From an uncultured bacterium (GTDB lineage: Bacteria; Hydrogenedentota; Hydrogenedentia; Hydrogenedentales; JAEUWI01), in NCBI GenBank assembly GCA_963977445.1, contig CAXBPH010000164.1:1-15492 (forward strand): a stretch of DNA of 15,492 nt, in the 5' to 3' direction. Shown here in pieces: positions 1,021 to 15,492 of this stretch. The position numbers and the translations under genes are program-made. Numbering within the stretch: the stretch's first letter is position 1; each line of letters begins with the position of its first letter. Under the pieces are notes generated by a model. It had not been told where the DNA came from, searched no databases, and saw only the letters and a program-made list of their open reading frames with translations.

Positions 1021-2556
1021 GTGGCAACCATCCCGGAACCGCAGCGGTACGATCAAACGGGTCTTTCCAAAAACCGGGGATTGATGCACGAGTTGTGGCT
1101 CCCCATGCTCCTCTTCGCCAGCGCGGGCGCGGTCACGTGGGCCATTCGGGGCACCACAGGCTGGGGGGGCATCGACGGCACCATCGTTCCCGGCCTGACT
1201 TGGGGCGTCCTCTGGTATTACCTGTGCTGGCTAAAGGGTATTGATTCGCGTGGCATCGTCTTCTGGCTGGGTATGGGCCTCTCCCTGGGCGGCGAATTGG
1301 GCTATGGCATCTATGTCTCCTGGATACAGGGCAACTTTCATCTCGGTGACCAGGTTATGCCTGTTTCCCCATGGTTCGGCTACCTCTGGTTCGCAATATG
1401 CGGTATCGGGTGGGCGGCACCGGGTGCAATTTTTCTCGGATGGGCCCTGTCGGCCCCGGCAACCAAGCCCACATGGGCCCTGCGCACCCTCCTGGTCGCC
1501 CTCCTGATTATGATTGTCCTCAACCGGGGAGCCTCACTGCTTGGTGTAGGCGTGGTCGAATGGGTCGGGACCTGGATTGCCGCACATCACCCCGGACTCC
1601 TCTATCCCAATGCCTACCTCGGTATCTATGACGGCGCACTGCGCGACCCGCAGTTGCGCATCATCTACACCAACACCCAGAATTTTCTGGTGCTGCTCTG
1701 GTGGCTCACTGCCACCCTTGTCGCCGTGATGCAGCGGGACCGCATGACCCGGATAGCGTCATTGGTCATTGGCGGCGGTTTCGGTATCGGCTTTCCCATT
1801 TCGGCCTTGTGGTGCCTGGGCTACAGCCACGCGCCCGACGCTGTGGACTGGTGGAAGGTGTGGGAACTCCACTCCGGTTTCAACCTCGGTATCGGGTACG
1901 CCATCTACTACTATTGGTACCTCCGGAAACGGAAAAACCCACCCACCGATCCCCCCCGGACCATGGCTTCATTCTTCACCGTGCAACAGTCGGGCGTGCT
2001 TTTGGCCCTGGCCGGGTTCGTGCTCATCTTCGTATCCGGCTACGAATATTTCTTCTGGACCGGACTCGCTGTCGCTGTGTTCTTCGTCCTCACCCTCCTC
2101 TATGCCACCTTCGCATCCGGTACGGACGACGCCAAAACAATCGCGCACCGCCAACGGGACGGGCTGCTGATCTTCAGTGTCTTTTTCCTCCTCTTCATGC
2201 TCTGCCACGGGGTGACCTCCCGTGCAGGGGTGGTGCTGGGCATCTATGGAGACAACGAAATTGGACAATACCGCTGGCCTATGGGTCGAATTGCCCTCTT
2301 TGTCCCCCTGGCCCTCGCACTCGTCGCGGGCACGCTGGTCGCACTGGCCCGCTCTTTTCGCGTCTCCCCCGATACCTGCGCTCCTGGTGCGCCATCGACA
2401 AGCCCCTGGCCACTGCGTATGTTTGACCTCCTTACCTTTATCGGTGTCGTGGGTGCTGCCTCCATCTGGCCCGCAAAAATCGGTGTGCTCTATGCCCTCT
2501 TCACGGGACTGGCCATCTTTGCCCTCGCACGCATCAATCGTCACTTCGGCGTCTGA
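1021..2556 (+). CDS. Uncharacterised polytopic integral membrane protein (511 aa, roughly a dozen or more TM segments by eye)
   Basis: Long ORF with many Gly/Trp/Phe-rich hydrophobic segments; AAGGAG RBS at 1007-1012, 8 nt before GTG 1021 (alternative ATG at 1084). No transporter family motif recognised. Confidence 0.8.
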   Translation: MATIPEPQRYDQTGLSKNRGLMHELWLPMLLFASAGAVTWAIRGTTGWGGIDGTIVPGLTWGVLWYYLCWLKGIDSRGIVFWLGMGLSLGGELGYGIYVSWIQGNFHLGDQVMPVSPWFGYLWFAICGIGWAAPGAIFLGWALSAPATKPTWALRTLLVALLIMIVLNRGASLLGVGVVEWVGTWIAAHHPGLLYPNAYLGIYDGALRDPQLRIIYTNTQNFLVLLWWLTATLVAVMQRDRMTRIASLVIGGGFGIGFPISALWCLGYSHAPDAVDWWKVWELHSGFNLGIGYAIYYYWYLRKRKNPPTDPPRTMASFFTVQQSGVLLALAGFVLIFVSGYEYFFWTGLAVAVFFVLTLLYATFASGTDDAKTIAHRQRDGLLIFSVFFLLFMLCHGVTSRAGVVLGIYGDNEIGQYRWPMGRIALFVPLALALVAGTLVALARSFRVSPDTCAPGAPSTSPWPLRMFDLLTFIGVVGAASIWPAKIGVLYALFTGLAIFALARINRHFGV

Positions 2557-2759: not shown

Positions 2760-2768
2760 TGTTATGAT
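2760..2768 (+). promoter_or_regulatory. Possible extended -10 promoter element (TGtTATGAT) for the oxidoreductase gene
   Basis: TG-n-TATGAT 26 nt upstream of ATG 2795, with a GGAG RBS at 2784-2787. Confidence 0.4.
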
Positions 2769-2794
2769 TGCGAATAGCCCTACGGAGATACTTC

Positions 2795-4912
2795 ATGCGA
2801 CGTCCCCTATACCGTTCCTGCCAGTTTCTTGCTCTTTCCTTGCTCGTACTTGTTTTTTCCCAGACCACTTCAGCGGCACCGATTGACGCTGACGTTTGCG
2901 TCTACGGCGGCACCTCGGGGGGCGTCATCGCCGCCGTGCAGGCCGCACGCATGGGAAAACGTGTGGTCCTCGTCGAACCGGGGGGCCATCTCGGTGGCAT
3001 GACCTCAGGAGGCCTCAGCGCAGTCGATATCGGCGATCCCCGCAGTGTGGGTGGCCTGACCCGGGAATATTTCACGCGCCTCGTCGCGGGCTATGGCAAA
3101 GAACTGGATTGGGACCGAAAAATGGGCCACGGCACGGGCGGTGCCTATTCCATTGAACCCCATGTGGCGGAAAACATCTTTGATGACATGGTCGCGGAAG
3201 CCGGCGTCAAGGTGCTCCGCAATGCGCCGCTGGCCTCGCTGGAACAGACAGGCAACCGAATATCCGAGCTACACACACAAGATGGCCGCACCATCCGTGC
3301 ACGGGTATTCATCGATGGGACCTACGAAGGCGACCTGATGGCCGCAGCGGCGGTTCCCTATACGGTGACCCGCGAGGGGAATGCGGCCTACGGCGAGCAG
3401 TACAACGGCATCTACTACACAGACGCCTATCGGCCCCGCCTCCTCCACAAGCAACCCGGCGAGAATGGCCGCGTTACCGGAGGCCAGGGCGTGTGGGACC
3501 GGGACTTTCCCCTGGACCCCTATATCGTCAAGGGCGACCCCACCAGTGGATTGCTCCCCCTCATCAACGACGGAGAACCGGGTGTACCGGGAGAGGCGGT
3601 GCCCGGCATTCAAGCCTATTGCTTCCGGCTCTGTCTCACCACGGCAGCAGACCGCCTCCCCATCGCTCCCCCCGAGGACTATGACCCAGCGCGCTATGAA
3701 TTGGTAGCCCGTTTCATCGAAGCCTGCCTCGAAAACGGAGACGACATGGACCTACGGTGGTTCAGCAAACACGACGCTCTGCCCAATGATAAGTGGGACT
3801 TCAACACCGCCACCTTCGGCGGGAACCTGCCCGGTTTGAGTTGGGCCTGGCCCGAAGCGAGCTATGATGAACGACGGGTCCTCGCAAAAACTCTGGAAGA
3901 CTACCATCGCGGTCTCTTTCATTTCCTTCGAACGGATCCACGGGTCCCGGTAAAGGTGAAAAAAGACGTACTTCGTTTTGGGCTGCCCCGCGATGAATTC
4001 AAGGACACGGGCGGCTGGCCCCACCAGGTTTACATTCGCGAAGGTCGGCGCATGGTCGGTGAGCTCGTCATGACGGAGCACCACACCTTTGGCCGTGAGA
4101 TTGCCCCCCGCGCCATGGGGCTCGGCTCCTATGGCACCGACACCCACTAAATACGTCGCATCGTGAAAGACGGCGTGGTGACCCGCGAAGGCAAGACGGC
4201 CGGTGGACGGGGCGGAGCAGGCCCCTACCCCATTGGCTACGGAGCCCTCGTTCCGAAGAAGGAAGATTGCGACAACCTCTTCGTGACCTTCGCCCTCTCT
4301 GCCAGCCACACCGCCTTCAGCAGCCTCCGCATGGAGCCCGTGTTTATGGTGACCAGCCAATCGGCCGCAACCGCCGCGTGTATGGCTATCGATAGTGACA
4401 TCCCTGTGCAAGAGGTGGCCTATGGCGCCTTGCGCGAACGACTCCTCGCCGATGGCCAAATCCTCGAATGGCCGCCCGGGCCCGAGCTGCTCGGTATCGT
4501 GCTCGATGACACCGAAGCCCAATACACGGGGAAATGGCTCACAAGCAATGCCGCCTCCAGCAACATCGGTGGGAGCTATCGCCATGATGGCGGTCGAGAT
4601 CGGGGCCAGAAAACGGCCACATTCACGATGGATATCCCGGCGGATGGCGACTATGGGGTCCGCTTTTACTACACACCCCACGCCAATCGTTCTACAAAAA
4701 CGGCCGTCACCATTCACCACGCCGACGGCGATACCACCGTCCTGGTGAATCAGCGAGAACCGGCACGTGTCGATGGCGTAGCCCCAACCTTGGGCCAATT
4801 CCGATTCGCCACCGACCAGAAAGCCTTGGTGACGATTACCAACGAAGGGGCCGACGGGTATGTCGTCGTCGATGGTATCCAGCTACTCGAAGCCAGCACA
4901 TCGAGTCGTTAG
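2795..4912 (+). pseudogene. Secreted FAD-dependent oxidoreductase (FAD_oxidored type, often annotated 'xanthan lyase') with a C-terminal golvesin/Xly CBM-like domain; interrupted by an in-frame TAA at 4148-4150
   Basis: ORFs 2768..4150 and 4163..4912 share a frame. N-terminal signal peptide (MRRPLYR...TTSA); Rossmann motif DVCVYGGTSGGVIAAVQAARMGK; HLGGMTSGGL; FIDGTYEGDLMAAA; YIREGRRMVG; after the stop, PYPIGYGALVPKKEDCDNLFV...SASHTAFSSLRMEPVFM; C-terminal VLDDTEAQYTGKW...ITNEGADGYVVVDGIQL. Could be a real nonsense allele or a sequencing error. Confidence 0.85.
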
Positions 4913-4969: not shown

Positions 4970-4998
4970 TTGATCGATGTCGATTAACGGGGTATGAT
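4970..4998 (+). promoter_or_regulatory. sigma70-type promoter TTGATC-N17-TATGAT with overlapping inverted repeats
   Basis: -35 TTGATC at 4970-4975, 17-bp spacer, -10 TATGAT at 4993-4998. Dyad TTGATCGA-tg-TCGATTAA (4970-4987, 7/8 match) and GGTAT-gatca-ATACC (4991-5005). Confidence 0.65.
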
Positions 4999-5005
4999 CA
5001 ATACC

Positions 5006-5449
5006 ATGTCTGGATTCCACACCTACAGAAATGGCCCCGTGCGGGCTGTTTGCCTGCTGCTGATTACCTTGGCGATTCTTTCGGGAAGCGTGCGGGGAAT
5101 TGCGCTGGATTTCTGTTTTTGTGCCGAAAACGACGAAGCTTCTACTACTGCGGACCCCTGCTGCCCCCAAGTTCACAGCGATGGGGAAGCTCTGGACCAA
5201 AACGGCCCTGGCCTCCTGCGCGCCGACAGCCAAGATGCTATTCCCTGTATAGAACTGCGCCTTGCCAGTGATTCAGGATGGGCACGGCTCGCCCTGTCCG
5301 GCTCTCTCGGATACAAGCATCTGGAGGCCGCTGCCTTCATCGCTTCTATTCATCAGGAAGACGTACTGCCCCCAAAATTCCCCTGCCCATCCAACACGGC
5401 AGCAACCCCCTACCCGAATATCCTTTCTGACGTCCGTCTTCAGGTCTGA
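5006..5449 (+). CDS. Small Cys-rich protein with an N-terminal hydrophobic/signal segment, upstream of the metal efflux genes (CzcI-like position)
   Basis: 147 aa from ATG 5006 (in-frame ATG 4994 lies inside the -10 box). Hydrophobic stretch AVCLLLITLAILSGSV; CxC (FCFC), CC and further Cys; Pro-rich C-terminal part ending ILSDVRLQV. Confidence 0.65.
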   Translation: MSGFHTYRNGPVRAVCLLLITLAILSGSVRGIALDFCFCAENDEASTTADPCCPQVHSDGEALDQNGPGLLRADSQDAIPCIELRLASDSGWARLALSGSLGYKHLEAAAFIASIHQEDVLPPKFPCPSNTAATPYPNILSDVRLQV

Positions 5450-5572: not shown

Positions 5573-7447
5573 ATGCGATCCGCTTCCCATTGGTATGGAC
5601 TCAGCGCCATTACCGCGACCATTGTAATTCTGACGACGTTCTCGTCCTGCTCACCAACGCCCCCCAATGTGGCTACCCCACCCGCCGCCGCAGTCGAGCG
5701 GGACCCAAATCGCCTCTGGTGTAATGAACACGGCCTTTACGAAGATGAATGTCTGATTTGCCATCCCGAACTCGCCAACAAGGTCGAAGACCATGACGGA
5801 CACGATCATGACCACGCTTCCGAAGTAAAAGAGCGGGACCCAAATCGACTCTGGTGCAATGAACACGGCCTTTACGAAGATGAATGCCTGATTTGCCATC
5901 CCGAACTCGCCAGTAAGGTCGAAGACCATACCGGCCACGACCACGCTTCGGAAGAGAAAGAGCGTGACCCGAACCGGCTCTGGTGCAATGAACACGGCCT
6001 ATACGAAGATGAGTGCCTGATTTGCCATCCCGAACTCGCCAATAAGGTGGAAGACCATGACGGGCACGACCATGCCGAAGTAACCGAAAAACGTGACCCC
6101 AATCGCCTGTGGTGTAACGAGCATTCCGTCTATGAAGACGAGTGCCTGATATGTCACCCCGAGCTGGAAAAAAAGTCGGAAGCCAACGCGGAGCGGGACC
6201 CAAACCGCCTCTGGTGCAATGAGCATTCCATCTATGAGGATGAGTGCCTGCTTTGTCACCCGGAACTGGCGAAAAAGCCGGTTGCCATGGTCGGTGGACT
6301 TCAGTGTCTGGAACACGATGTACTTGAACGAGAGTGTGGCATTTGCCATCCCGAACTGCTCGCCCAAATGGTTCCCGGACAGGGCCTGAAGGTACGTTTC
6401 GAATCCCTCGCGTCGGCGGAGAAGGCCGGGGTGCAGACGGGCTTTCCGGTCTATGCCGACCGTGCCGCTGAGGGCAACGTACTCGGCGAAATGACCTATA
6501 ACATGAATGAACTGGCGTACATCACGCCCGCGCTGGACGGCGTCATAAAGCGGGTTCTCGTGGATGCGGGCGACGTGGTGGAGGCCGGTCAACTGCTGGC
6601 CGAAATCGCCGCACCCGGCCTCGCCAGCGAGCGCAGTGCCTATGCCAAGGCCGTCGCAAACAGGACACTCCACCGTGAAGCCGTCGCACGGGAACAGAAA
6701 CTCGTGGCGGAGAAAATTTCCGCCCGGCAAGACCTTGAGCAAGCCCAGGCCCGCCTCGCCGAAGCCGAAGCCGAAATCGACATGGCCATACAGCGCCTCC
6801 ACGATATGGGGCTCTCAGCAGAGGAAATTACGACCAAGACGGACACTGCGACATCGGCATTCCCGGTACGCGCGCCCTTTGCAGGCACGATCACCGAACG
6901 AAATGCGGTCGCGGGCGCAGCGGTAAGCACCGGCACCTCCCTCTTTCAAGTGGCGAATCTTTCTTCCATGTGGATGGATGTCTCCGTACCGGAGGCGCAG
7001 GTCCTGCTACTCGAAAAAGGCATGCCCATACAGGCCCAACTCGATGCCGCTCCTGGTCTCCTCTTTCCAGGAAAACTGACGTGGCTCTCCACCAGTGTGG
7101 ACGAAACGACCCGCATGGTCCGAGGCCGCGCGGAAATCCCCAATCCCGATGGACTGTTACGCAATGCCATGTTTGGCAGCATCTCCTTCACCAACACCAA
7201 CACGACGCCGACACTGGCACTCCCAGAGACAGCCATTCAGTATGTAGATGGCCTGCCTATCGTGTTTGCAAAATTGGAGCCCGGCCTCTTTGAAACCCGC
7301 CTGATACGGGCCGGTGCGGCCGTCGGTACTATGACACCCATCCTGGAGGGCCTGTCCGAAAACGATGAAATCGTTCTGGGACAGAGCTATGTTCTGAAGT
7401 CTGAACTCCTGAAGGCCCGACTCGGCGCGGGCTGCGTACACGACTAG
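5573..7447 (+). CDS. Heavy-metal RND efflux periplasmic adaptor (CzcB/CusB-like membrane fusion protein), predicted lipoprotein, with an N-terminal Cys/His repeat array
   Basis: AGGAG RBS at 5560-5564; lipobox FSS-C26; MFP core with lipoyl halves ITPALDGVIKRVLVDAGDVVEAGQLLAEI and VRAPFAGTITERNAVAGAAV, alpha-helical hairpin, beta-barrel VDETTRMVRGRAEIPNPDGLLR, and GLSENDEIV; upstream of a CzcA-type pump. Confidence 0.93.
   Translation: MRSASHWYGLSAITATIVILTTFSSCSPTPPNVATPPAAAVERDPNRLWCNEHGLYEDECLICHPELANKVEDHDGHDHDHASEVKERDPNRLWCNEHGLYEDECLICHPELASKVEDHTGHDHASEEKERDPNRLWCNEHGLYEDECLICHPELANKVEDHDGHDHAEVTEKRDPNRLWCNEHSVYEDECLICHPELEKKSEANAERDPNRLWCNEHSIYEDECLLCHPELAKKPVAMVGGLQCLEHDVLERECGICHPELLAQMVPGQGLKVRFESLASAEKAGVQTGFPVYADRAAEGNVLGEMTYNMNELAYITPALDGVIKRVLVDAGDVVEAGQLLAEIAAPGLASERSAYAKAVANRTLHREAVAREQKLVAEKISARQDLEQAQARLAEAEAEIDMAIQRLHDMGLSAEEITTKTDTATSAFPVRAPFAGTITERNAVAGAAVSTGTSLFQVANLSSMWMDVSVPEAQVLLLEKGMPIQAQLDAAPGLLFPGKLTWLSTSVDETTRMVRGRAEIPNPDGLLRNAMFGSISFTNTNTTPTLALPETAIQYVDGLPIVFAKLEPGLFETRLIRAGAAVGTMTPILEGLSENDEIVLGQSYVLKSELLKARLGAGCVHD
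5696..6358 (+). repeat. In-frame tandem repeat: 5 near-identical (E/K)RDPNRLWCNEHxxYEDECLxCHPEL units plus 1 divergent CLEHDVLERECGICHPEL unit
   Basis: Unit starts at about 5696, 5831, 5960, 6089 and 6191 (periods 135, 129, 129, 102 bp); divergent sixth unit at 6305-6358. His-rich linkers DHDGHDHDH / DHTGHDH / DHDGHDH follow units 1-3. Confidence 0.97.
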
Positions 7448-7629
7448 CAGCCCCTTTCAATAGACGCGCGAAGGCGAGAATGAATATTCTTGGCCGCATT
7501 CAAGGCGCGCTACCGCCGGAAATACCGGTATTCTCAAGGGTTCGCAACGCGGGGCTCGGTCGAGAAGACCATTCCCAGCCCCCTTTGCGTTTTGCAACGG
7601 GCTCCCCACAGCCCGCTGAGGAAAATCAT

Positions 7630-10600
7630 ATGCTGAATTATCTTGTGGCTTTTGCCCTCCAGAACCGGGCGCTCATGGTGCTGCTCTTTATCGCTGCCGC
7701 TGGCTTTGGTGGCTGGCGACTGGCAAACTTGCCCATCGATGCCTTTCCCGATACCACGCCCGTTCAGGTGCAGATTAACACGACGGCCCCCGCGCTGGGG
7801 CCCGAAGACATTGAACAACAGATCACATTACCCGTCGAACTCGCGGTCTCAGGCCTGCCGGGCCTCGACGAAGTGCGGTCTATCTCTAAGTTTGGCTTTT
7901 CCCAGGTGGTGGCCACCTTTACGGATGAAACCAGCGTCTATGATGCCCGCCAGTTCATTACGGAACGGCTGAACACCATCGCGCTCCCCGAGGGCATTGA
8001 ACAGCCCCAGCTTGGCCCAATCGCCACGGGCCTCGGGGAAGTCTTCCACTACATGCTCCACTCCGACAATCCAGACCGGAGTTTGACGGAGCTGCGAACC
8101 CTCCACGACTGGATTGTGAAGCCCGAGCTCCTGAAGACCTCCGGGGTAGCAGAAGTGAACAGTTGGGGTGGCTTCGAGAAACAATACCACGTCATCATTC
8201 GTCCGGATGCCCTCATCAAACATGGACTCCTTCTCCGCGACGTACACGACGCCTTGGCGCGAAACAACGCCAACGTGGGTGGGGGCCAGCTTACCCGCGC
8301 GGGTGAATCCATGCTGGTTCATGGTTTGGGGCGTGTATCCAATGCGACAGACATCGAAAACATCGTCGTTCTGGCCCACGAAGGCACGCCGGTCCGGGTG
8401 CGGGATGTGGCGGAGGTGCGTATTGACCACGAAATCCGTCGGGGCGCCGTCACCTTTCAGGGCGAAGGGGAAGCCGTGCTGGGCCTGGGCTTCATGCTCA
8501 TGGGCGAAAACAGTCAGGCCGTCACCCGGGAGCTCCGGGAGCGATTGGAGACGGCCAAAAGCGCGCTTCCCGACGACGTGGAGCTCACTATCGTTTACGA
8601 CCGGACCGAACTGGTCTCCAACGTAATCGAAACCGTCCAGCACAACCTGCTGGCCGGTGCACTCCTGGTTGTCGTCGTACTCTTTCTCCTCCTGGGCAAT
8701 ATACGTGCGGGCCTTCTCGTCGCGGCAACCATACCGCTGGCCTTACTCTTCGCCGTCATTGGCATGCACGAGATGGCTATCGCCGCGAGCCTGCTCAGTC
8801 TGGGTGCCATGGATTTCGGCATTATCGTCGATGGCTCCGTGGTGATGACCGAAAGTAATCTCCGAAGACTGCGGGAAGAACAGGAGCGGCTCGGAAGAAA
8901 ACTGAACCGTGCCGAACGCCTTGGCTGCGTTATCCGCTCCAGCCAGGAGGTGGCGCGACCGGTGGCTTTTGGTATGGGAATCATTGCCGTTGTATTTTTC
9001 CCCGTCTTGGCGCTCCAGGGCATCGAGTCTAAACTCTTTTCCCCCATGGCGTGGACCTTTATCTTCGCCCTCTTCGGCGCCCTGGCAGTCGCTCTCCTCT
9101 TGTCCCCGGTGCTCTCCTATTACCTGCTCCCCCGCAACGCAACACCGGAGCGTCATGGCCTGGGTTCGCTCCTGGTCGTTGTGTACCGTGTTTTACTCCG
9201 TGGCGCACTCCGATTCCGCTGGCTTGTCGTTGCCACGTCAATCCTCTTGCTCGCCGCGACGTCACTCCTCGCGACCCGCCTCGGTGGTGAGTTCCTCCCG
9301 CGCCTGAGTGAAGGGGCAACCGTCTGCAACGTCATCCGCCTGGCAGGTGTTTCGATTGAAAGCTCGGTGGAATACAATTCCCGTATCGAGCGATTGTTGC
9401 TGAAGGCCTTTCCCGATGAAGTCCGATTCGTCTGGAGCCGCATCGGGTCGGCGGAAGTCGCTACGGACCCCATGGGCACGGAACTGACGGACATATTTAT
9501 TGCCCTCCATCCCCGGGGCCAGTGGAGCAAGGCAAAAACTCAGGGCGAACTCGTAGCCGCCATGGAAACGGAATTGGGCGATCTACCGGGGCTGAATATC
9601 GCCTACACCCAACCCATTGAGATGCGGATGAACGAAATGGTCTCCGGTATCCGCTCTGATCTTGGCATCAAGGTATTCGGAGATGATTTTGATACCCTCG
9701 TGCGCATTTCCGATGATATCCAACGGGTCTTACTCGAAATGGAGGGTGCCACCGATATTTCTGCCGATCAGATTACGGGGCAACCTGCCCTGCAGATTCA
9801 GGTGGACCAGGAGAAGATCGCACGGTACGGCGTACCCACGGCGGATGTCCTGGATTTTGTAGCGGCCATGGGTGGTTTGGATGCCGGCCTGGTCTATGAA
9901 GGGCAACGCGTCTTCCCACTCGTATTGCGCCTGCCCGACGATTACCGAAGCGACCCCGCGCGTATCGAGCACGCCATCATTCCAACCTTAGACGGACCAC
10001 TCCTTGAAGTGGGACAACTCGCCTCCGTGCTGGAAACGACGACGCCCGCCACCATCAACCGCGAATGGGGACGACGACTTATCCGGGTCCAGGCCAACGT
10101 GCGTGATCGCGATGTGGCGTCCTTCGTTGCCGAAGCAAAGGACAAGGTCGCTGCCCAGATTACCTTGCCCGAAGGCTACCTCCTCGAATGGGGTGGCCAA
10201 TTCAAGAATCTAGAGCGGGCGCGACTGCGGCTATCCATTGTCGTGCCTTTGACGCTGATCCTTATCTTCTTCCTGCTTTATTTCAGCCTGAATCGCTTCC
10301 GCGATGTACTTATCATCTACACGGGAATTCCCTTCGCAGCAATTGGCGGTGTCATTGCCTTGTACCTCCGTGACATGCCCTTCAGTGTCAGCGCTGCCGT
10401 TGGATTTATTGCACTCTGTGGCATTGCCGTTCTGAATGGACAGGTCCTTGTCACCGCCATCCACCGTTTTCGCGAGGAGGGCACGGACCTCGCGGAGGCC
10501 GTTCGAGAAGCGGCCATACAACGATTACGCCCGGTGCTGGCGACGGGCATCACGGACGCCGTTGGATTTCTGCCCATGGCCATGTCCACGGGCGTCGGTG

Positions 10601-10740
10601 CCGAAGTACAGCGCCCCCTGGCTACCGTAGTGGTTGGCGGCATACTCTCGGCCACCCTGCTCACCCTGCTCGTCTTACCGGCCCTCTATTTAATTGCAAA
10701 CGGGCGAAGGAAGAAAAGTGGCACCGCAGACGAACGCTAA
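7630..10740 (+). CDS. czcA: CzcA-type heavy-metal efflux RND transporter (HME family), 1036 aa
   Basis: GAGG RBS at 7618-7621 before ATG 7630; N-terminal LPIDAFPDTTPVQVQINT; TM4 LGAMDFGIIVDGSVVMTE (the DFG...DG...E pattern of CzcA-like divalent-cation pumps rather than CusA); GGEFLPRLSEG; RLRPVLAT; GAEVQRPLATVVVGG. Confidence 0.92.
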   Translation: MLNYLVAFALQNRALMVLLFIAAAGFGGWRLANLPIDAFPDTTPVQVQINTTAPALGPEDIEQQITLPVELAVSGLPGLDEVRSISKFGFSQVVATFTDETSVYDARQFITERLNTIALPEGIEQPQLGPIATGLGEVFHYMLHSDNPDRSLTELRTLHDWIVKPELLKTSGVAEVNSWGGFEKQYHVIIRPDALIKHGLLLRDVHDALARNNANVGGGQLTRAGESMLVHGLGRVSNATDIENIVVLAHEGTPVRVRDVAEVRIDHEIRRGAVTFQGEGEAVLGLGFMLMGENSQAVTRELRERLETAKSALPDDVELTIVYDRTELVSNVIETVQHNLLAGALLVVVVLFLLLGNIRAGLLVAATIPLALLFAVIGMHEMAIAASLLSLGAMDFGIIVDGSVVMTESNLRRLREEQERLGRKLNRAERLGCVIRSSQEVARPVAFGMGIIAVVFFPVLALQGIESKLFSPMAWTFIFALFGALAVALLLSPVLSYYLLPRNATPERHGLGSLLVVVYRVLLRGALRFRWLVVATSILLLAATSLLATRLGGEFLPRLSEGATVCNVIRLAGVSIESSVEYNSRIERLLLKAFPDEVRFVWSRIGSAEVATDPMGTELTDIFIALHPRGQWSKAKTQGELVAAMETELGDLPGLNIAYTQPIEMRMNEMVSGIRSDLGIKVFGDDFDTLVRISDDIQRVLLEMEGATDISADQITGQPALQIQVDQEKIARYGVPTADVLDFVAAMGGLDAGLVYEGQRVFPLVLRLPDDYRSDPARIEHAIIPTLDGPLLEVGQLASVLETTTPATINREWGRRLIRVQANVRDRDVASFVAEAKDKVAAQITLPEGYLLEWGGQFKNLERARLRLSIVVPLTLILIFFLLYFSLNRFRDVLIIYTGIPFAAIGGVIALYLRDMPFSVSAAVGFIALCGIAVLNGQVLVTAIHRFREEGTDLAEAVREAAIQRLRPVLATGITDAVGFLPMAMSTGVGAEVQRPLATVVVGGILSATLLTLLVLPALYLIANGRRKKSGTADER

Positions 10741-10903: not shown

Positions 10904-13798
10904 TTATCGTCTTCGCGGACGGGCACCATCCGTAGAAACGGTGGGCAGTTGCAGGGCAGAGTTATCTCGAATTGGCCGTCTTCCGCGACCCCGAGCGGGG
11001 GCAACTTCTTCAACAGGCAATTCATATCGCTTGAAGAATGGGCGACCTGGGTTCGCTGTCGCGACGGGAACATCAACACCATCCGTTTGTTCAACCACGG
11101 ATAGAACACCGCTCTGACCAATCGTTGCCGTTGAACCAGACACTTCGATGTTAACTCCTTGTGCAATATCGAGGGTCTCCGGCGAGAAACCGCCGCCAGC
11201 AATCGTGACCGTGCCATCGGTCTGAACCGCAGCGAGACCTTCCGCCAGGGTATTGTAGGGATTGAGCGACGACCCGAGCTCTACGCCAGGGTAGCCAAAG
11301 TTTACATATACCTGGTTTTGCAGGCCGACCAGCAATCCGACCGGGAGGGTCAGCGGATTCTCATCCAAATCGTTCGATGAGATGGTCAGTCCACCCTGGT
11401 AGGTACCCGGGGCAAAACCATTGGCGTTGGCCGTCACCGTAATGGTCTGCATTCCTTGTGGGCCAATAGTGCCCGTGCTGGCGTCTACGGAAAGCCACGC
11501 CAAAGGACCAATCGTCAGCAGCTGATGATAGGTATTTGGGTCTGCACCGAGGGCCGTGCTGAAACTATCGGGGAGTGGAAAGGCCATGGAATGTCCCCGA
11601 TTCACACGTCCAAAACTGGTCTCTGGAGGACTCCCACCACTGTTCTCAAAATAAACTTCCGTGGGTGTTACGCCCCAAAGGGCCGAAATGATATAGAACT
11701 TACCCGCCTGAAGGGGCACTTCAATACCGTTGACACCGTAGAAACCCGCGCCCTGGCCGACAAAGTCCACCACGTACGCGTAAATCGCTACCTTTTCGAA
11801 ACCTTCGCCCACGCCATCCATCTCATAGACGACGAATCCAAATTGATTGGTACCGGTAAAACGAACCGCTGCGGATATCGCTCGTAGTTGGGTGCTCCGA
11901 TCAACCTCATACACATTTCCATAGGAAAAAAGGGAGGTGGGTGCCGTGGGTACCGGTCCCGGATCGCCAACATACTCCGAGCCACCTTCTCCTTCAAGGG
12001 AGATGTCGATAGTGTAATCGAGATCCTGTCCGCCGGTGTCTGCCGTGTTGGATACGGTCAACGTTTTATCCAGCGATACGGCGGTAGGGGTGAAATAGCT
12101 CAAGGAGGTATCAGAGACGGAAATATCTGCGAGGGCATTGACCACCTCGGTGCTATAGGTAAAGGCCATATTTTCGCCCGTCTTCTTAATATTGAAGAGC
12201 GTGTGGCCCGTGGGCAGTACCACGCCTCCCTGATAGGTGTCGGTGCTGGGAACGGTGCTCGGGCCGAAAATGCTTGCGCCATTTTCCCGAAACACATCGC
12301 CACCATCGCCCCGATTAGTTCCCTTTTCCAAATGGTAGGCACCGTCTGCTTGTAACACGGCGACGCGATAGTGCTTCCCGTTGGTGGGCCAGCCGGCCTG
12401 CCCGGGATAGCCCTGCGTATTGTAGGGGGCGTTCTCGTCAATATGGAGGACCAGTAAACCGCCTTGGGGCATATCCGCTTCGAAACCAAAAGGCTGTCTA
12501 TTCTCGATGAGCAAATACTCGCCCGGAGGAAAGTTCTCGTCTATCCGAATTACGGAGGGCGTGTAGCCAATGGGGCCCAGGGCATAATTCCCCGGTCCGT
12601 CCAAGACAATCGGAGGGGCCATCCAACCCAACTGAATCCTACTCCAGGAGCTGAAGTGGGGTGGATAGTGCTGGCTGTTATCAAAGCCCCAGGAGTTTGC
12701 CATTAGACCCCAGGAGCCGATGCCATTGCCGTTGTCAGGGGACGGGTCGGTGTCGTAGAGATCGGGCAGGCCAAAAAAGTGGCCCGTTTCATGACAGATT
12801 ACCCCGATGCGGCCAATGGCGCTACCTTGGTAGTGCCACACGCCGGGGCTGATATGATAGTTGCTTACCGCCACCCCTTCTGCAGAAACCCATCCCGGAA
12901 AACCGAGGGAGGACTTGTGCGACCAGATTCGGTTTGACGAAGGCGTGCCATATTGATCCGTCGCGCCCCATTCCGCACCATAGCCCGAGTGTATGAAGGC
13001 AATTGCGTCAATTTTACCATCACTGTCCGAGTCGAAATCGTTGAAATTGACGGACCCATCGATCGCATTCAAGGCATATCGCAGGGCTTCTGAAACTTTG
13101 CTGCCACCAAGCCCCGAAACGCCATTGGCGTAGTAGGCCTCCGTCTGAGGCAGCGTTACCCACACGGTCACGGTGGACTCCAGGGTAAACTGAGTGTAGG
13201 ATACCTCGCGATAGTACGCCTTCACGCTGCCCGTGGGCGCGAGCGTGGGATCAGGCGAATTCGCATTAAACAAGACATTCATATCCGATTGGCTGGGAAG
13301 GGTACGGCCCGTGTGGTCCGAAAACTCCATCAGCACCACCAGATTGCGTTTTACACCCAACACGGGTGTCGCAAGTTCAAAGCCAGGCGCTGACCCACTC
13401 CCAGAACCATCCTCCAATTGAGGTTCGACGAGACCCATCTGGCGCCGAATACCTTCGGAAGGCATGATGCCACGGACAAGTCCGGACCGTCTGGGATCGC
13501 CCCGTCCAACCCGTACGCCCGACGAAACAACACGACCTTGCCCATTGCGACGGCCATAATTGAATTCGCCCGCCCGCGTTCGAACTACCGTGTACCCTTT
13601 TTCATCTTCCATCCAATTGAAGTGCTCGTCTCCGCGGACGCGCAACTTCACAACCGAACCGTCCGGCTGCGTTTCTTCAAAGGCAAGGGGACTCGCCTGG
13701 ATTGCCCTGGCAACCGGGGCTAACGTACAGGTCAGCCCCAATGCTACCACCATGGAAAGCATCGAGTGACACGCTATATGCTTTATTGACTCGCTCAT
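10904..13798 (-). CDS. Secreted M6-family (immune inhibitor A-like) zinc metalloprotease with C-terminal beta-sandwich/BACON-like and DUF1565-like modules, 964 aa
   Basis: Signal peptide ending ARA; propeptide QPDG...RGDEHFNW...GY; GSVKAYYREVSY; DFDSDSDGKID; IHSGYGAE; IWSHK; zinc motif IGVICHETGHFFGLPDLY (HExxH at 12779-12793); GSWGLMA; EYLLIENRQ; BACON-like WLSVDASTGTI...GTYQGGLTISSND. AAGGT RBS 7 nt upstream of the start. Confidence 0.92.
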   Translation of the reverse strand: MSESIKHIACHSMLSMVVALGLTCTLAPVARAIQASPLAFEETQPDGSVVKLRVRGDEHFNWMEDEKGYTVVRTRAGEFNYGRRNGQGRVVSSGVRVGRGDPRRSGLVRGIMPSEGIRRQMGLVEPQLEDGSGSGSAPGFELATPVLGVKRNLVVLMEFSDHTGRTLPSQSDMNVLFNANSPDPTLAPTGSVKAYYREVSYTQFTLESTVTVWVTLPQTEAYYANGVSGLGGSKVSEALRYALNAIDGSVNFNDFDSDSDGKIDAIAFIHSGYGAEWGATDQYGTPSSNRIWSHKSSLGFPGWVSAEGVAVSNYHISPGVWHYQGSAIGRIGVICHETGHFFGLPDLYDTDPSPDNGNGIGSWGLMANSWGFDNSQHYPPHFSSWSRIQLGWMAPPIVLDGPGNYALGPIGYTPSVIRIDENFPPGEYLLIENRQPFGFEADMPQGGLLVLHIDENAPYNTQGYPGQAGWPTNGKHYRVAVLQADGAYHLEKGTNRGDGGDVFRENGASIFGPSTVPSTDTYQGGVVLPTGHTLFNIKKTGENMAFTYSTEVVNALADISVSDTSLSYFTPTAVSLDKTLTVSNTADTGGQDLDYTIDISLEGEGGSEYVGDPGPVPTAPTSLFSYGNVYEVDRSTQLRAISAAVRFTGTNQFGFVVYEMDGVGEGFEKVAIYAYVVDFVGQGAGFYGVNGIEVPLQAGKFYIISALWGVTPTEVYFENSGGSPPETSFGRVNRGHSMAFPLPDSFSTALGADPNTYHQLLTIGPLAWLSVDASTGTIGPQGMQTITVTANANGFAPGTYQGGLTISSNDLDENPLTLPVGLLVGLQNQVYVNFGYPGVELGSSLNPYNTLAEGLAAVQTDGTVTIAGGGFSPETLDIAQGVNIEVSGSTATIGQSGVLSVVEQTDGVDVPVATANPGRPFFKRYELPVEEVAPARGRGRRPIRDNSALQLPTVSTDGARPRRR

Positions 13799-13831: not shown

Positions 13832-15492
13832 CTACTGCAAACTCACAAGTACCAATACCAGGCCACGGCCTTCCTTCAGCCCCGTCATCGCCTTACCAAG
13901 GACGGCGCCTGTAGCTTTCCCGTGATCCACCACCTTGGCGGCGTGACCAGCGGTCGACGACGTAGTCAACAAGTCACCCGGCTCAATCGCGCCGAAGCTC
14001 GCATCGACGTAGCAGTAAACGCGGCCGGTCAGCGCAACGGGATGTTCACCATCGGCCTCCGTTCCAACCTGCGACATGATCATGCCCGGAAGCACATTCC
14101 CCGCTCCGCTGATAATACCTGCGACGCGACGATCATGGGCTTCGGTACTGACCATCAATTTTCCGGGATTCTCAGGATCGATACTGACCACCATGCCGGG
14201 CAGTATTTCGCCCTCCAGCGTGGCCACGTCAAAGCCTTCAGCGAGATCGGCACCGCCGGTAATCTTGAGTACTTTCGTGCGGGTGGTTCCGTTAACATCC
14301 AGCTCAAAGTTTGGATCCATTCCGATGCCAACCTGGCCACCTTCGGTTATCGTCATGTGGGTGATGCCATCGGTTCCGAGCTTCAGGGACGATCCGAAAT
14401 CGTCACCATTGTTGTCGGCTCCAATAAACAGCATATTCTCATCGGTAGTACCACCGCCGTCCGCGCCAGCAGGACCTTGCGGCCCTTCTGGACCCTGGGG
14501 ACCTACTGCACCGGCAGGACCCATCGGTCCTACGGGACCATCTGCGCCATCCGCACCGGCGGGACCAACTTCACCTTGAGGACCGTCCGCACCGTCAATA
14601 CCGTCTGCACCCATCGGACCTTCGGGGCCAACGGCACCATCAATGCCAGCAGGACCCTGAGGACCGATGGCACCATCACTACCATTTGCGCCAGCTGGGC
14701 CGGCAGGACCAACAGCACCCTGAGGACCAACGGCACCATCAATGCCAGCAGGGCCAGCAGGGCCCATTGGACCTTCGGCACCAGGGGTTCCAGCGGGACC
14801 GACCGCGCCATCAATGCCGTCCGCGCCCATTGGGCCTTCGGGACCAGGTGCACCTTCGGCACCAGCAGGACCAGTCTCACCCTGGGGGCCAATCGCACCA
14901 TCAATTCCATTTACGCCCGCAGGACCGGTTTCACCCTGAGGACCAACCGAACCATCAATTCCATTTTCGCCTGCAGGACCCATCGGACCTTCAGGTCCGG
15001 CTGCACCTTCGGCACCAGCAGGACCAGTCTCACCCTGGGGGCCAATCGCACCATCAATTCCATTTACGCCCGCAGGACCGGTTTCACCCTGAGGACCGAC
15101 CGCACCATCAATACCATCCGCACCCGCAGGACCCACATCCCCATTGGGACCAGGTGCACCTTCGGCACCAGCGGGACCCGTTTCACCCTGAGGACCTACC
15201 GCGCCATCAATGCCGTCCGAGCCCATTGGGCCTTCGGGACCAGATGCACCCGTGGGGCCAGCGGGGCCCGTTTCACCCTGAGGACCAACCGAACCATCAA
15301 TGCCATTGGCACCAGCAGGACCCACATCCCCTTTGGGGCCGGGCGCACCTTCTGGACCAGCGGGACCAGCAGGGCCCGTTTCACCCTGAGGACCAACCGA
15401 ACCATCAATGCCATTGGCACCAGCAGGACCCATGGGACCTTCAGGTCCGGCGGCACCTTCGGTACCCGCAGGACCGGTCTCACCTTGGGGAC
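13832..15492 (-). CDS. Collagen-like protein with a C-terminal Peptidase_G2/intramolecular-chaperone-like domain (5'-truncated by window)
   Basis: The frame stays open past ATG 15433 to the window edge (..[20 protein letters not shown]). Uninterrupted Gly-X-Y from the edge to about 14459, then [47 protein letters not shown]...[10 protein letters not shown]...[11 protein letters not shown] stop at 13832-13834. Confidence 0.9.
14459..15492 (-). repeat. Collagen triple-helix repeat, about 115 Gly-X-Y triplets visible, with exact internal DNA duplications
   Basis: 9-bp periodicity; recurring [16 protein letters not shown] block; exact 96-bp duplicate (14849-14944 = 15002-15097) and exact 61-bp duplicate (15264-15324 = 15372-15432). 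Confidence 0.97.

Follow-up and report, generated by a model that had tools for sequence, protein, structure and literature searches.

A tandem array of six Cys-His-Cys-Cys modules, putatively metal-binding, on a CzcB/ZneB-type efflux adaptor from an uncultured Hydrogenedentota bacterium

In a 15,492-nucleotide (nt) stretch of DNA from an uncultured bacterium of the Hydrogenedentota (GenBank assembly GCA_963977445.1, contig CAXBPH010000164.1; the whole stretch is called the window below) we found that the open reading frame (ORF) at 5573-7447 (+) encodes a 624-residue efflux adaptor of the resistance-nodulation-division (RND) class with six tandem copies of a small cysteine- and histidine-containing module ahead of its body. 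An earlier note on this DNA, made from its letters alone, had described such a fusion and proposed that the modules were either a Cys3His metal-finger array or a set of up to six c-type hemes. Its identification of an RND adaptor fused to six Cys modules held up against Pfam, TIGR01730, the Protein Data Bank (PDB) and Foldseek, and translation agreed with it on the 624-residue length, the lipobox, the Pro-rich linker, and the His/Asp linkers after modules 1-3. Comparison with several hundred related proteins leads us to place the odds somewhat above even (roughly 0.55) that this is a tethered periplasmic metal-binding array that serves the pump by metal capture or activation.

A pattern scan of the translation with C-x2-H-x6-C-x2-C followed by H-P-E-L gave six matches (residues 50-67, 95-112, 138-155, 181-198, 215-232, and 245-262), preceded by W in modules 1-5 and by Q in module 6, so that the earlier note's description of the module, including its W/Q and its six copies, was accurate. 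The DNA span of these six strict matches is 5720-6358, with 6358 in the last residue of module 6 as matched. Chance origin of the modules is excluded, since the strict pattern has 6 matches in the protein, whereas 20,000 shuffles of its 624 residues gave a mean of 0.0. Alignment of the copies (A1) showed the conserved unit to be ~30 residues long (consensus xERDPNRLWCNEHGLYEDECLICHPELAxK), longer than the earlier note gave. On the DNA, Tandem Repeats Finder reported a period of 129 with 2.8-3.5 copies (83-88% matches) and a period of 102 with 1.8 copies, and modules 1 and 2 share 82 of 90 nt. Modules 1-5 differ mostly at synonymous sites (15 synonymous vs 6 non-synonymous between modules 1 and 4, and 9 vs 1 between modules 1 and 3), which means that purifying selection acts on each copy. 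The window holds no further in-frame module, and the sole other match in six frames, at 2454, lies out of frame within another gene. The array (residues 27-268) is acidic, with 58 D+E vs 21 K+R, 22 His, 18 Cys, only 2 Met, and a pI of 4.74.

A word-indexed protein search from residues 40-262 (threshold E ≤ 0.001) matched the array in 1322 adaptor-length and 301 shorter proteins, which confirmed the earlier note's suspicion that the module is not unique; its mention of shorter arrays in some planctomycete-type adaptors was right in that other adaptors do have modules, but the family is far larger than this implied. None of 399 candidate longer proteins scored, which is weak evidence that longer fused forms are lacking. 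The Pfam family PF25973 (BSH_CzcB) was present on 120 of 120 relatives among the matches listed. A six-module profile compared with 1.84 billion cluster representatives gave 280 matches at ≤0.001, 112 of them at ≤1e-10 and 17 at ≤1e-30, i.e., a family of 280 clusters at 50% identity. When 109 profile-matched representatives were scanned with Pfam, 55 were HlyD_D23 adaptors and the remainder were short; no other credible fusion partner, cytochrome family, or heavy-metal mini-domain family was seen on these 109. We rejected as a family member one profile match, P0343 (511 residues; 8.4e-08), in which only the first knuckle matches; it has ~ten repeats of a longer unit (C-x-E-H-G-x-F-E ... G-C-P-x-C), probably represents an unrelated zinc-ribbon repeat family, and was excluded from all counts as an unrelated repeat protein. 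Named relatives came from Candidatus Scalindua, Planctomycetota, Myxococcales, Marinimicrobia, Hydrogenedentes, Verrucomicrobia, Victivallales, Fibrobacterota, and Krumholzibacteria, and from a Planctomyces plasmid, the latter being the single record found when the array and one stand-alone protein were searched against plasmids by tblastn. By these searches the module is a large, widespread, unnamed domain family; we found no description of it, including its C-x2-H-x6-C-x2-C spacing, and likewise no functional characterization, in the literature searched.

Copy number and fusion partners, which the earlier note had proposed to record, proved variable and uniform, respectively. Proteins of at least 400 residues carry 1-11 modules (2 proteins with one module, 5 with two, 37 with three, 55 with four, 31 with five, 17 with six, 12 with seven, 2 each with eight, nine, and ten, and 1 with eleven), and the fused partners seen were all CzcB-type adaptors. 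Simple sequence patterns divide the modules into subtypes designated o, B, C, and Z, of which the Z type closes the array, adjoining the body, in 116 of 162 adaptors. The architectures include a C series (CZ in 3, CCZ in 7, CCCZ in 12, CCCCZ in 5, CCCCCZ in 4 including the window protein, and CCCCCCZ in 1) and an oBC series (oBCZ in 17, BCBCZ in 11, and oBCoBCZ in 8). Apart from these fusions, the modules occur in stand-alone secreted proteins of 119-140 residues, which have their own signal peptide, contain three modules, and end a few residues past the third; their "oBC" triplet is the unit found fused in oBCZ adaptors. These proteins are encoded on contigs of 10 to 365 kb (e.g., 154 kb for P0163, 365 kb for P0219, and 43 kb for P0227). 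In total, 78 proteins of ≤200 residues start with M and hold at least three modules, some of which may be fragments. In the ESM Atlas the stand-alone clusters are 92-126 residues long, with Myxococcota and Planctomycetota the commonest sources, and no common Pfam 38.1 family was found for them.

Conservation within this family points to the probable ligands. We compiled 599 modules by a loose pattern over 120 listed adaptors and 1207 unique modules by the strict pattern over 349 family proteins. In the set of 599, the C-x2-H histidine and the 6-residue spacer were each kept in 591 and the following proline in 559, and the residue directly after CxxC was H in 412, D in 64, Q in 60, N in 26, R in 20, T in 7, K in 5, E in 3, A in 1, and S in 1. 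In the 1207 unique modules this last position was H in 62%, D in 13%, Q in 9%, N in 8%, and R in 3%; E was present at +2 in 80% and at +7 in 86%, P at +15 in 90%, and L at +17 in 74%, and the aromatic residue before the first Cys was well kept. The Cys, His, Cys, and Cys columns were invariant or at least 90% conserved (alignments A2 and A4), and in the last module C245, H248, E252, C255, and C258 were invariant across the 120 rows of A4, with H259 not among the conserved residues. Since the C-x2-H histidine is near-invariant while the histidine after CxxC varies, the conserved ligand set would be Cys-His-Cys-Cys, and the CxxCH histidine would be dispensable. Its main substitutes D, Q, and N are polar and of similar size, and the position lies just before the helix described below, which is in keeping with helix capping, a role in the second shell, or a weak second metal site rather than with an axial heme ligand.

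These counts bear directly on the heme proposal, in which the Ccm or Ccs machinery would attach up to six c-type hemes at the CxxCH motifs and so make a redox-active adaptor. Six such motifs in a Sec-exported protein invite this interpretation, as does the finding that 51 of 162 adaptors of at least 450 residues have CxxCH in every module; maturation systems accept very short CxxCH peptides, and adventitious heme attachment may occur. The other adaptors tell against it, 104 being mixed and 7 having no CxxCH at all, so that the invariance of this histidine for which the earlier note had looked was not found. Instead, homologs often carry one of D, Q, N, and R between CxxC and the P, the kind of outcome (CxxC(N/D/R)P) that note had named beforehand as counting against heme, and the histidine is replaced in 187 of the 599 modules and in 38% of the 1207. 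Moreover, the first Cys and the C-x2-H histidine, which have no part in heme attachment, are better conserved than the heme histidine. Cytochrome models gave weak matches to the array below their cut-offs (Cytochrome_C7, 13.8 bits vs 24.8; Cytochrome_CBB3, 17.3 vs 27), no cytochrome family exceeded its cut-off on the array or on the 109 representatives, and the modelled 25-residue hairpin-plus-helix units seem too small and regular to enclose hemes. We regard the multiheme reading as effectively refuted by the comparative data and give heme attachment only a very slight chance; the earlier note's preference for a Cys3His metal-finger array agrees with these data, the first Cys, the His, and the CxxC pair being essentially invariant.

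The predicted structure of the modules is compatible with such a finger. An AlphaFold2 model of residues 172-268 (90-row alignment) had a mean predicted local distance difference test score (pLDDT) of 72.3, with modules at 70-84, and in it each module comprised a pair of short strands (near W-C and x-Y), a CxxC loop, and a helix from P-E-L. The full-length model (120-row alignment A4) had a mean pLDDT of 86.2, with modules at 84-97 and the body mostly at 95-98; the His/Asp linkers were predicted to be disordered (pLDDT <50), and the last module joined the adaptor body without a dip (87-97). The layout fits a small knuckle-plus-helix metal finger, as judged from secondary structure and pLDDT rather than from measured Cys/His geometry. 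Structural neighbors of the Atlas model were zinc-finger arrays and double zinc ribbons, at template modeling scores of ≤0.25 only, and are a lead only.

The body behind the array (residues ~300-610) is an RND adaptor, with a match to Pfam HlyD_D23 of 2.1e-44 (151.8 bits vs a cut-off of 30) and to TIGR01730 (RND_mfp) of 155.1 bits vs 94.9. The CzcB/NccB subfamily model TIGR00999 scored 139.6 bits and did not reach its cut-off of 319.3; on these scores the adaptor falls outside this curated subfamily, although it is related to it. By sequence, the best match in the PDB was ZneB (3lnn, 104.4 bits; CusB scored ~40 bits), and Foldseek with the full-length model likewise returned 3lnn_A (ZneB) on top (E-value 6.6e-24), then AcrA, MexA, MacA, and CusB, to 1e-15. 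At the other end of the protein, an AGGAG lies 8 nt 5' of the ATG, and the signal peptide is a probable inner-membrane lipid anchor, a lipobox-like motif being present in 71 of 162 family adaptors. Because this signal peptide has no twin-arginine motif, export would be through Sec, and a Sec/lipoprotein-type signal of this kind is compatible with a cofactor picked up in the periplasm. The extreme C-terminus is also conserved: G[AS]GC occurs in the last 14 residues of 147 of 163 adaptors of at least 450 residues, 12 of the other 16 have GEGC or GVGC, the family motif can be written G-A-G-C-x-[DH], and in A4 the tail residues G618, G620, and C621 each reach at least 90% conservation. We infer that this tail is a candidate terminal metal site. 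According to PMC4446572 the membrane-proximal domain of an adaptor includes both its N- and its C-terminus, and on this basis the N- and C-terminal motifs would sit near the periplasmic entrance of the pump. A contig scan with His-linker and adaptor-body patterns confirmed 2 of 231 candidate stretches (L001 and L002), both distant module-less adaptors, and that of L001 (7737-8930), from another phylum, has His-rich tails at both ends instead. The linker-1 peptide EDHDGHDH is also found in a module-less adaptor, within its N-terminal tail.

The gene that follows encodes an RND pump of the HME (heavy-metal efflux) type, which scored 1138.5 bits against TIGR00914 (cut-off 701.45), and its PDB scores were 669.6 bits to ZneA and 581.7 to CusA. 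The stretch at its transmembrane segment 4 is MDFGIIVDGSVVMTES; in Nies's classification the aspartate-bearing D-F-G form is reportedly associated with divalent-cation pumps. The first 50 residues of the pump ORF (7480-7629) precede the start of all family models and solved homologs. Since TIGR00914 (which matches from residue 51) and the solved homologs begin there, translation probably begins at M51 (7630), in which case ~180 nt would separate the two genes. No gene for an outer-membrane factor turned up in the scanned ORFs of the window. A three-module adaptor whose sequence ends in GAGCCE, encoded on plasmid pPL62-1 of Planctomyces sp. SH-PL62, is likewise followed by a CusA/CzcA-family gene, so that the next gene is such a pump in 2 of 2 loci with readable context; there the adaptor gene is preceded by a small hypothetical gene, and no outer-membrane factor gene lies nearby.

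In our preferred reading the protein would be a lipid-anchored CzcB/ZneB-type adaptor in a two-gene heavy-metal RND pump (adaptor plus CzcA/ZneA-like transporter), in which six ~30-residue mini-domains separate the lipid anchor from the adaptor body. Each of them would bind one metal ion through Cys-His-Cys-Cys, which would hold the beta-hairpin knuckle and the helix together, and the array might act as an antenna that captures or buffers thiophilic divalent cations (of the Zn, Cd, or Co class) beside the pump entrance and then passes them on or switches the pump on. The three His/Asp linkers and the G-A-G-C-V-H-D tail would be likely extra, more labile sites of the same relay. Metal binding itself, the identity of the metal, and its transfer or an activating role are all inferred. 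We favor handling of the substrate over pure scaffolding because all fused forms seen are metal-pump adaptors, because free secreted forms exist, because copy number is plastic yet each copy is under purifying selection, because the array is strongly acidic and His-rich, and because the terminal Cys tail co-occurs with the modules.

Several points weigh against this reading. Tetrahedral Cys3His sites are mostly structural and exchange metal slowly, which would suit a scaffold better than a shuttle, and the periplasm is oxidizing, so that the CxxC pairs could be disulfides. No solved or curated relative lends support: Pfam and NCBIfam models did not match the array, a PDB sequence search with it gave only a chance match (E-value 1.1), and a Foldseek search of the PDB with the three-module model found nothing better than an E-value of 7.7, so that the check for an already characterized domain behind the module, which the earlier note had suggested, turned up no Pfam, NCBIfam, or PDB relative. 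The gene context rests on two loci only. His-rich linkers are uncommon in the family (15 of 162 adaptors) and for this reason fall outside the core mechanism. Finally, some subtypes keep the histidine after CxxC at a conservation of at least 90% (H24 in A2; H195 in A4), which implies some role for it beyond the Cys-His-Cys-Cys model.

The main competitor holds that the modules are structure only, i.e., beads stabilized by Zn or by disulfides, in an array that is a spacer or tether positioning the adaptor and has no part in metal handling. The structural character typical of Cys3His sites would be in keeping with it, as would the rigid beads split by flexible linkers in the models, the freely varying copy number, and a last module that is both continuous with the body (pLDDT 87-97) and the most conserved; it leaves unexplained the stand-alone secreted three-module proteins, the finding that all fusion partners seen were CzcB-type metal-pump adaptors, the acidic, His-rich composition, and the co-occurring C-terminal Cys tail, and we judge it improbable, though well ahead of heme. 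A compromise between it and metal handling may also apply, in which the exchangeable site is an acidic/His surface carried on a structural Cys3His core. Cycling of the CxxC between dithiol and disulfide, with the array as a periplasmic thiol sensor or reductant and its other Cys and His accessory, would accord with the periplasmic location and with the modelled position of CxxC directly before a helix, as in thiol-disulfide oxidoreductases. Such a role is hard to square with three Cys per module plus an invariant His at fixed spacing, which point to a four-ligand metal site, with the failure of Pfam and Foldseek to find a thioredoxin-like fold or family match, and with the specific association with metal pumps; we think it highly unlikely. 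Modules carrying Fe-S clusters were rejected, the signal peptide having no twin-arginine motif. A more specific form of the metal-binding proposal is tentative: the fused arrays and free three-module proteins together might constitute an undescribed periplasmic Cys3His metallochaperone family for divalent-cation (Zn/Cd/Co) HME-RND pumps, matching there the part that CusF and the CusB N-terminus play for Cu/Ag pumps, with the array as a metal-triggered folding switch. The mini-domains would then fold only with metal, and cooperatively, so that the tether would shorten, metal would be offered to the conserved Cys tail at the C-terminus and to the entrance of the pump, and efflux would be activated.

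Known systems offer partial parallels. The first 61 residues of CusB bind metal, take metal from CusF, and activate CusA, as stated in PMC4446572. This metal site lies, as does the array, in an N-terminal extension of its HME-RND adaptor near the membrane-proximal domain, and we propose the same role for the array. CusB has one site, made of methionines, for Cu(I)/Ag(I), whereas the array has six folded Cys-His-Cys-Cys modules. CusB matches the window protein at residues 406-611 only, with no sequence relation to the CusB N-terminus, and the partner pump of the window adaptor is closer to ZneA than to CusA, the pump of CusB. A CusF-like domain, an accessory metallochaperone, is also fused to the HME adaptor SilB and the same domain occurs free as CusF (PMC4446572), and in this respect SilB and CusF resemble the oBC unit, which is found both fused to HME adaptors and free. 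CusF and SilB's domain, which is placed at the C-terminus, are beta-barrels (OB-like) with Met/His/Trp ligands, whereas the modules are N-terminal hairpin-plus-helix units with Cys3His in 1-11 copies; the beta-barrel is absent from the module models, and no Pfam match to it was seen on the array. It is nonetheless plausible, by analogy, that the array stands in for a CusF-type shuttle. ZneB, which binds Zn2+ itself (PMC4446572), and CzcB share with the window adaptor a homologous body and a ZneA-like pump; the ZneB PDB chain (359 residues) aligns to residues 311-609 only and has no counterpart of the Cys module array. The His/Asp-rich N-terminal stretch of the window adaptor resembles the tails of module-less adaptors.

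Small Cys/His zinc fingers are likewise four-ligand sites made from a knuckle and a helix start and often form beads-on-a-string repeats, but the module, unlike classical zinc fingers, is periplasmic. HMBD, YHS, and TRASH are small Cys/His domains fused to metal transporters. Models of HMBD (PF19335), YHS, and zinc fingers in Pfam gave no match to single modules or to the whole array at E-values up to 10, in a scan for which the HMMER filters discard most matches above ~0.1. Multiheme c-type cytochromes similarly have repeated CxxCH in exported proteins, but the module histidine is not conserved. The features of the adaptor and pump genes are collected in Table 1.

Table 1. Features of the adaptor gene and the adjacent pump gene (window coordinates; aa, amino acid residues; the four residues listed for each module are proposed ligands, from the conservation pattern)
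Feature	Coordinates	Strand	Residues or motif	Basis
Signal peptide with lipobox-like motif	5573..5650	+	F-S-S-C26	Translation; helix at residues 3-24 in model
Pro/Ala-rich flexible linker	5651..5692	+	aa 27-40	Translation; pLDDT <50 over residues 25-39
Module 1	5693..5782	+	aa 41-70; C50, H53, C60, C63	Pattern; pLDDT blocks 84-92
His/Asp-rich linker 1	5783..5827	+	aa 71-85; VEDHDGHDHDHASEV	pLDDT <50 over residues 75-86
Module 2	5828..5917	+	aa 86-115; C95, H98, C105, C108	Pattern; alignment
His/Asp-rich linker 2	5918..5956	+	aa 116-128	pLDDT <50 over residues 119-129
Module 3	5957..6046	+	aa 129-158; C138, H141, C148, C151	Pattern; alignment
His/Asp-rich linker 3	6047..6085	+	aa 159-171	pLDDT <50 over residues 160-171
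Module 4	6086..6175	+	aa 172-201; C181, H184, C191, C194	Pattern; modelled beta-hairpin and helix
Module 5	6188..6277	+	aa 206-235; C215, H218, C225, C228	Pattern; alignment; models
Module 6, distinct Z type adjoining the body	6278..6367	+	aa 236-265; C245, H248, C255, C258	Alignment; pLDDT 87-97
ZneB/CzcB-type body (membrane-proximal, beta-barrel, lipoyl, and hairpin domains)	6377..7399	+		Pfam, TIGR01730, PDB, Foldseek
C-terminal tail	7421..7444	+	L-G-A-G-C621-V-H-D	Conservation across adaptors
CzcA/ZneA-like HME-RND pump gene	7480..10740	+		TIGR00914, PDB matches

Automatic annotation of these proteins is liable to mislead. The array (window 5693-6373) draws a TCL1_MTCP1 match of 56.8-62.8 bits that is summed over the repeats, and we rejected this and the other Pfam labels on the array (DnaG_DnaB_bind, MAGI_u5, Kazal, and cytochrome) because each adds up weak matches over repeats of a Cys/His/acidic motif. 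PF01840, PF13442, and PF14522 appear among the precomputed assignments of many module-bearing relatives. With such spurious Pfam labels and counts of CxxCH, module adaptors are at risk of mis-annotation as multiheme proteins.

Directly 5' of the adaptor gene is a 151-residue ORF (4994-5449, +) with a hydrophobic N-terminus and Cys clusters (C-F-C and C-C-P), which had no Pfam or NCBIfam match and an Atlas feature score of 0.96 to clusters of hypothetical proteins of 140-147 residues, Planctomycetota being the commonest source. Kinship of this ORF with the small Cys-rich gene at the same place on the Planctomyces plasmid was considered and rejected, the sequences not being similar. On that plasmid, another small hypothetical gene just 3' of the pump gene (L003, 14299-14535, -) has the motif C-x2-C-x2-H-x6-C-x2-C-x-C, which was caught by our module pattern scan and has a spacing unrelated to that of the window module. 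Farther upstream in the window, a FAD_oxidored domain is split across two same-frame ORFs (2768-4912, +) by one TAA (4148-4150), with profile positions 1-326 in ORF 2768-4150 and 341-416 plus Golvesin_C in ORF 4163-4912; this TAA is a nonsense mutation, the mark of a pseudogene, or a sequencing error. The 511-residue ORF at 1021-2556 (+) has many hydrophobic stretches by eye and no Pfam or NCBIfam match. Beyond the pump gene, 10904-13798 (-) encodes a 964-residue protein with an M6-family metalloprotease domain (TIGR03296, 177.9 bits), and the adjoining 13832-15433 (-) a 533-residue collagen-triple-helix repeat protein (Pfam Collagen, 2.3e-49).

The path that metal takes through the periplasm to Cu/Ag pumps, from CusF to the CusB N-terminus to CusA, has been worked out (PMC4446572). 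In the literature searched we found no account of a comparable periplasmic carrier, whether fused or free, for ZneA/CzcA-like pumps. That heavy-metal adaptors can have accessory metal-binding domains is a known principle; what differs here is the use of a domain family for which we found no description. If the reading we prefer is true, the modules would be candidates for such a carrier in ZneA/CzcA-like pumps, and the family would be an unusual case of zinc-finger-like Cys sites operating in the oxidizing periplasm.

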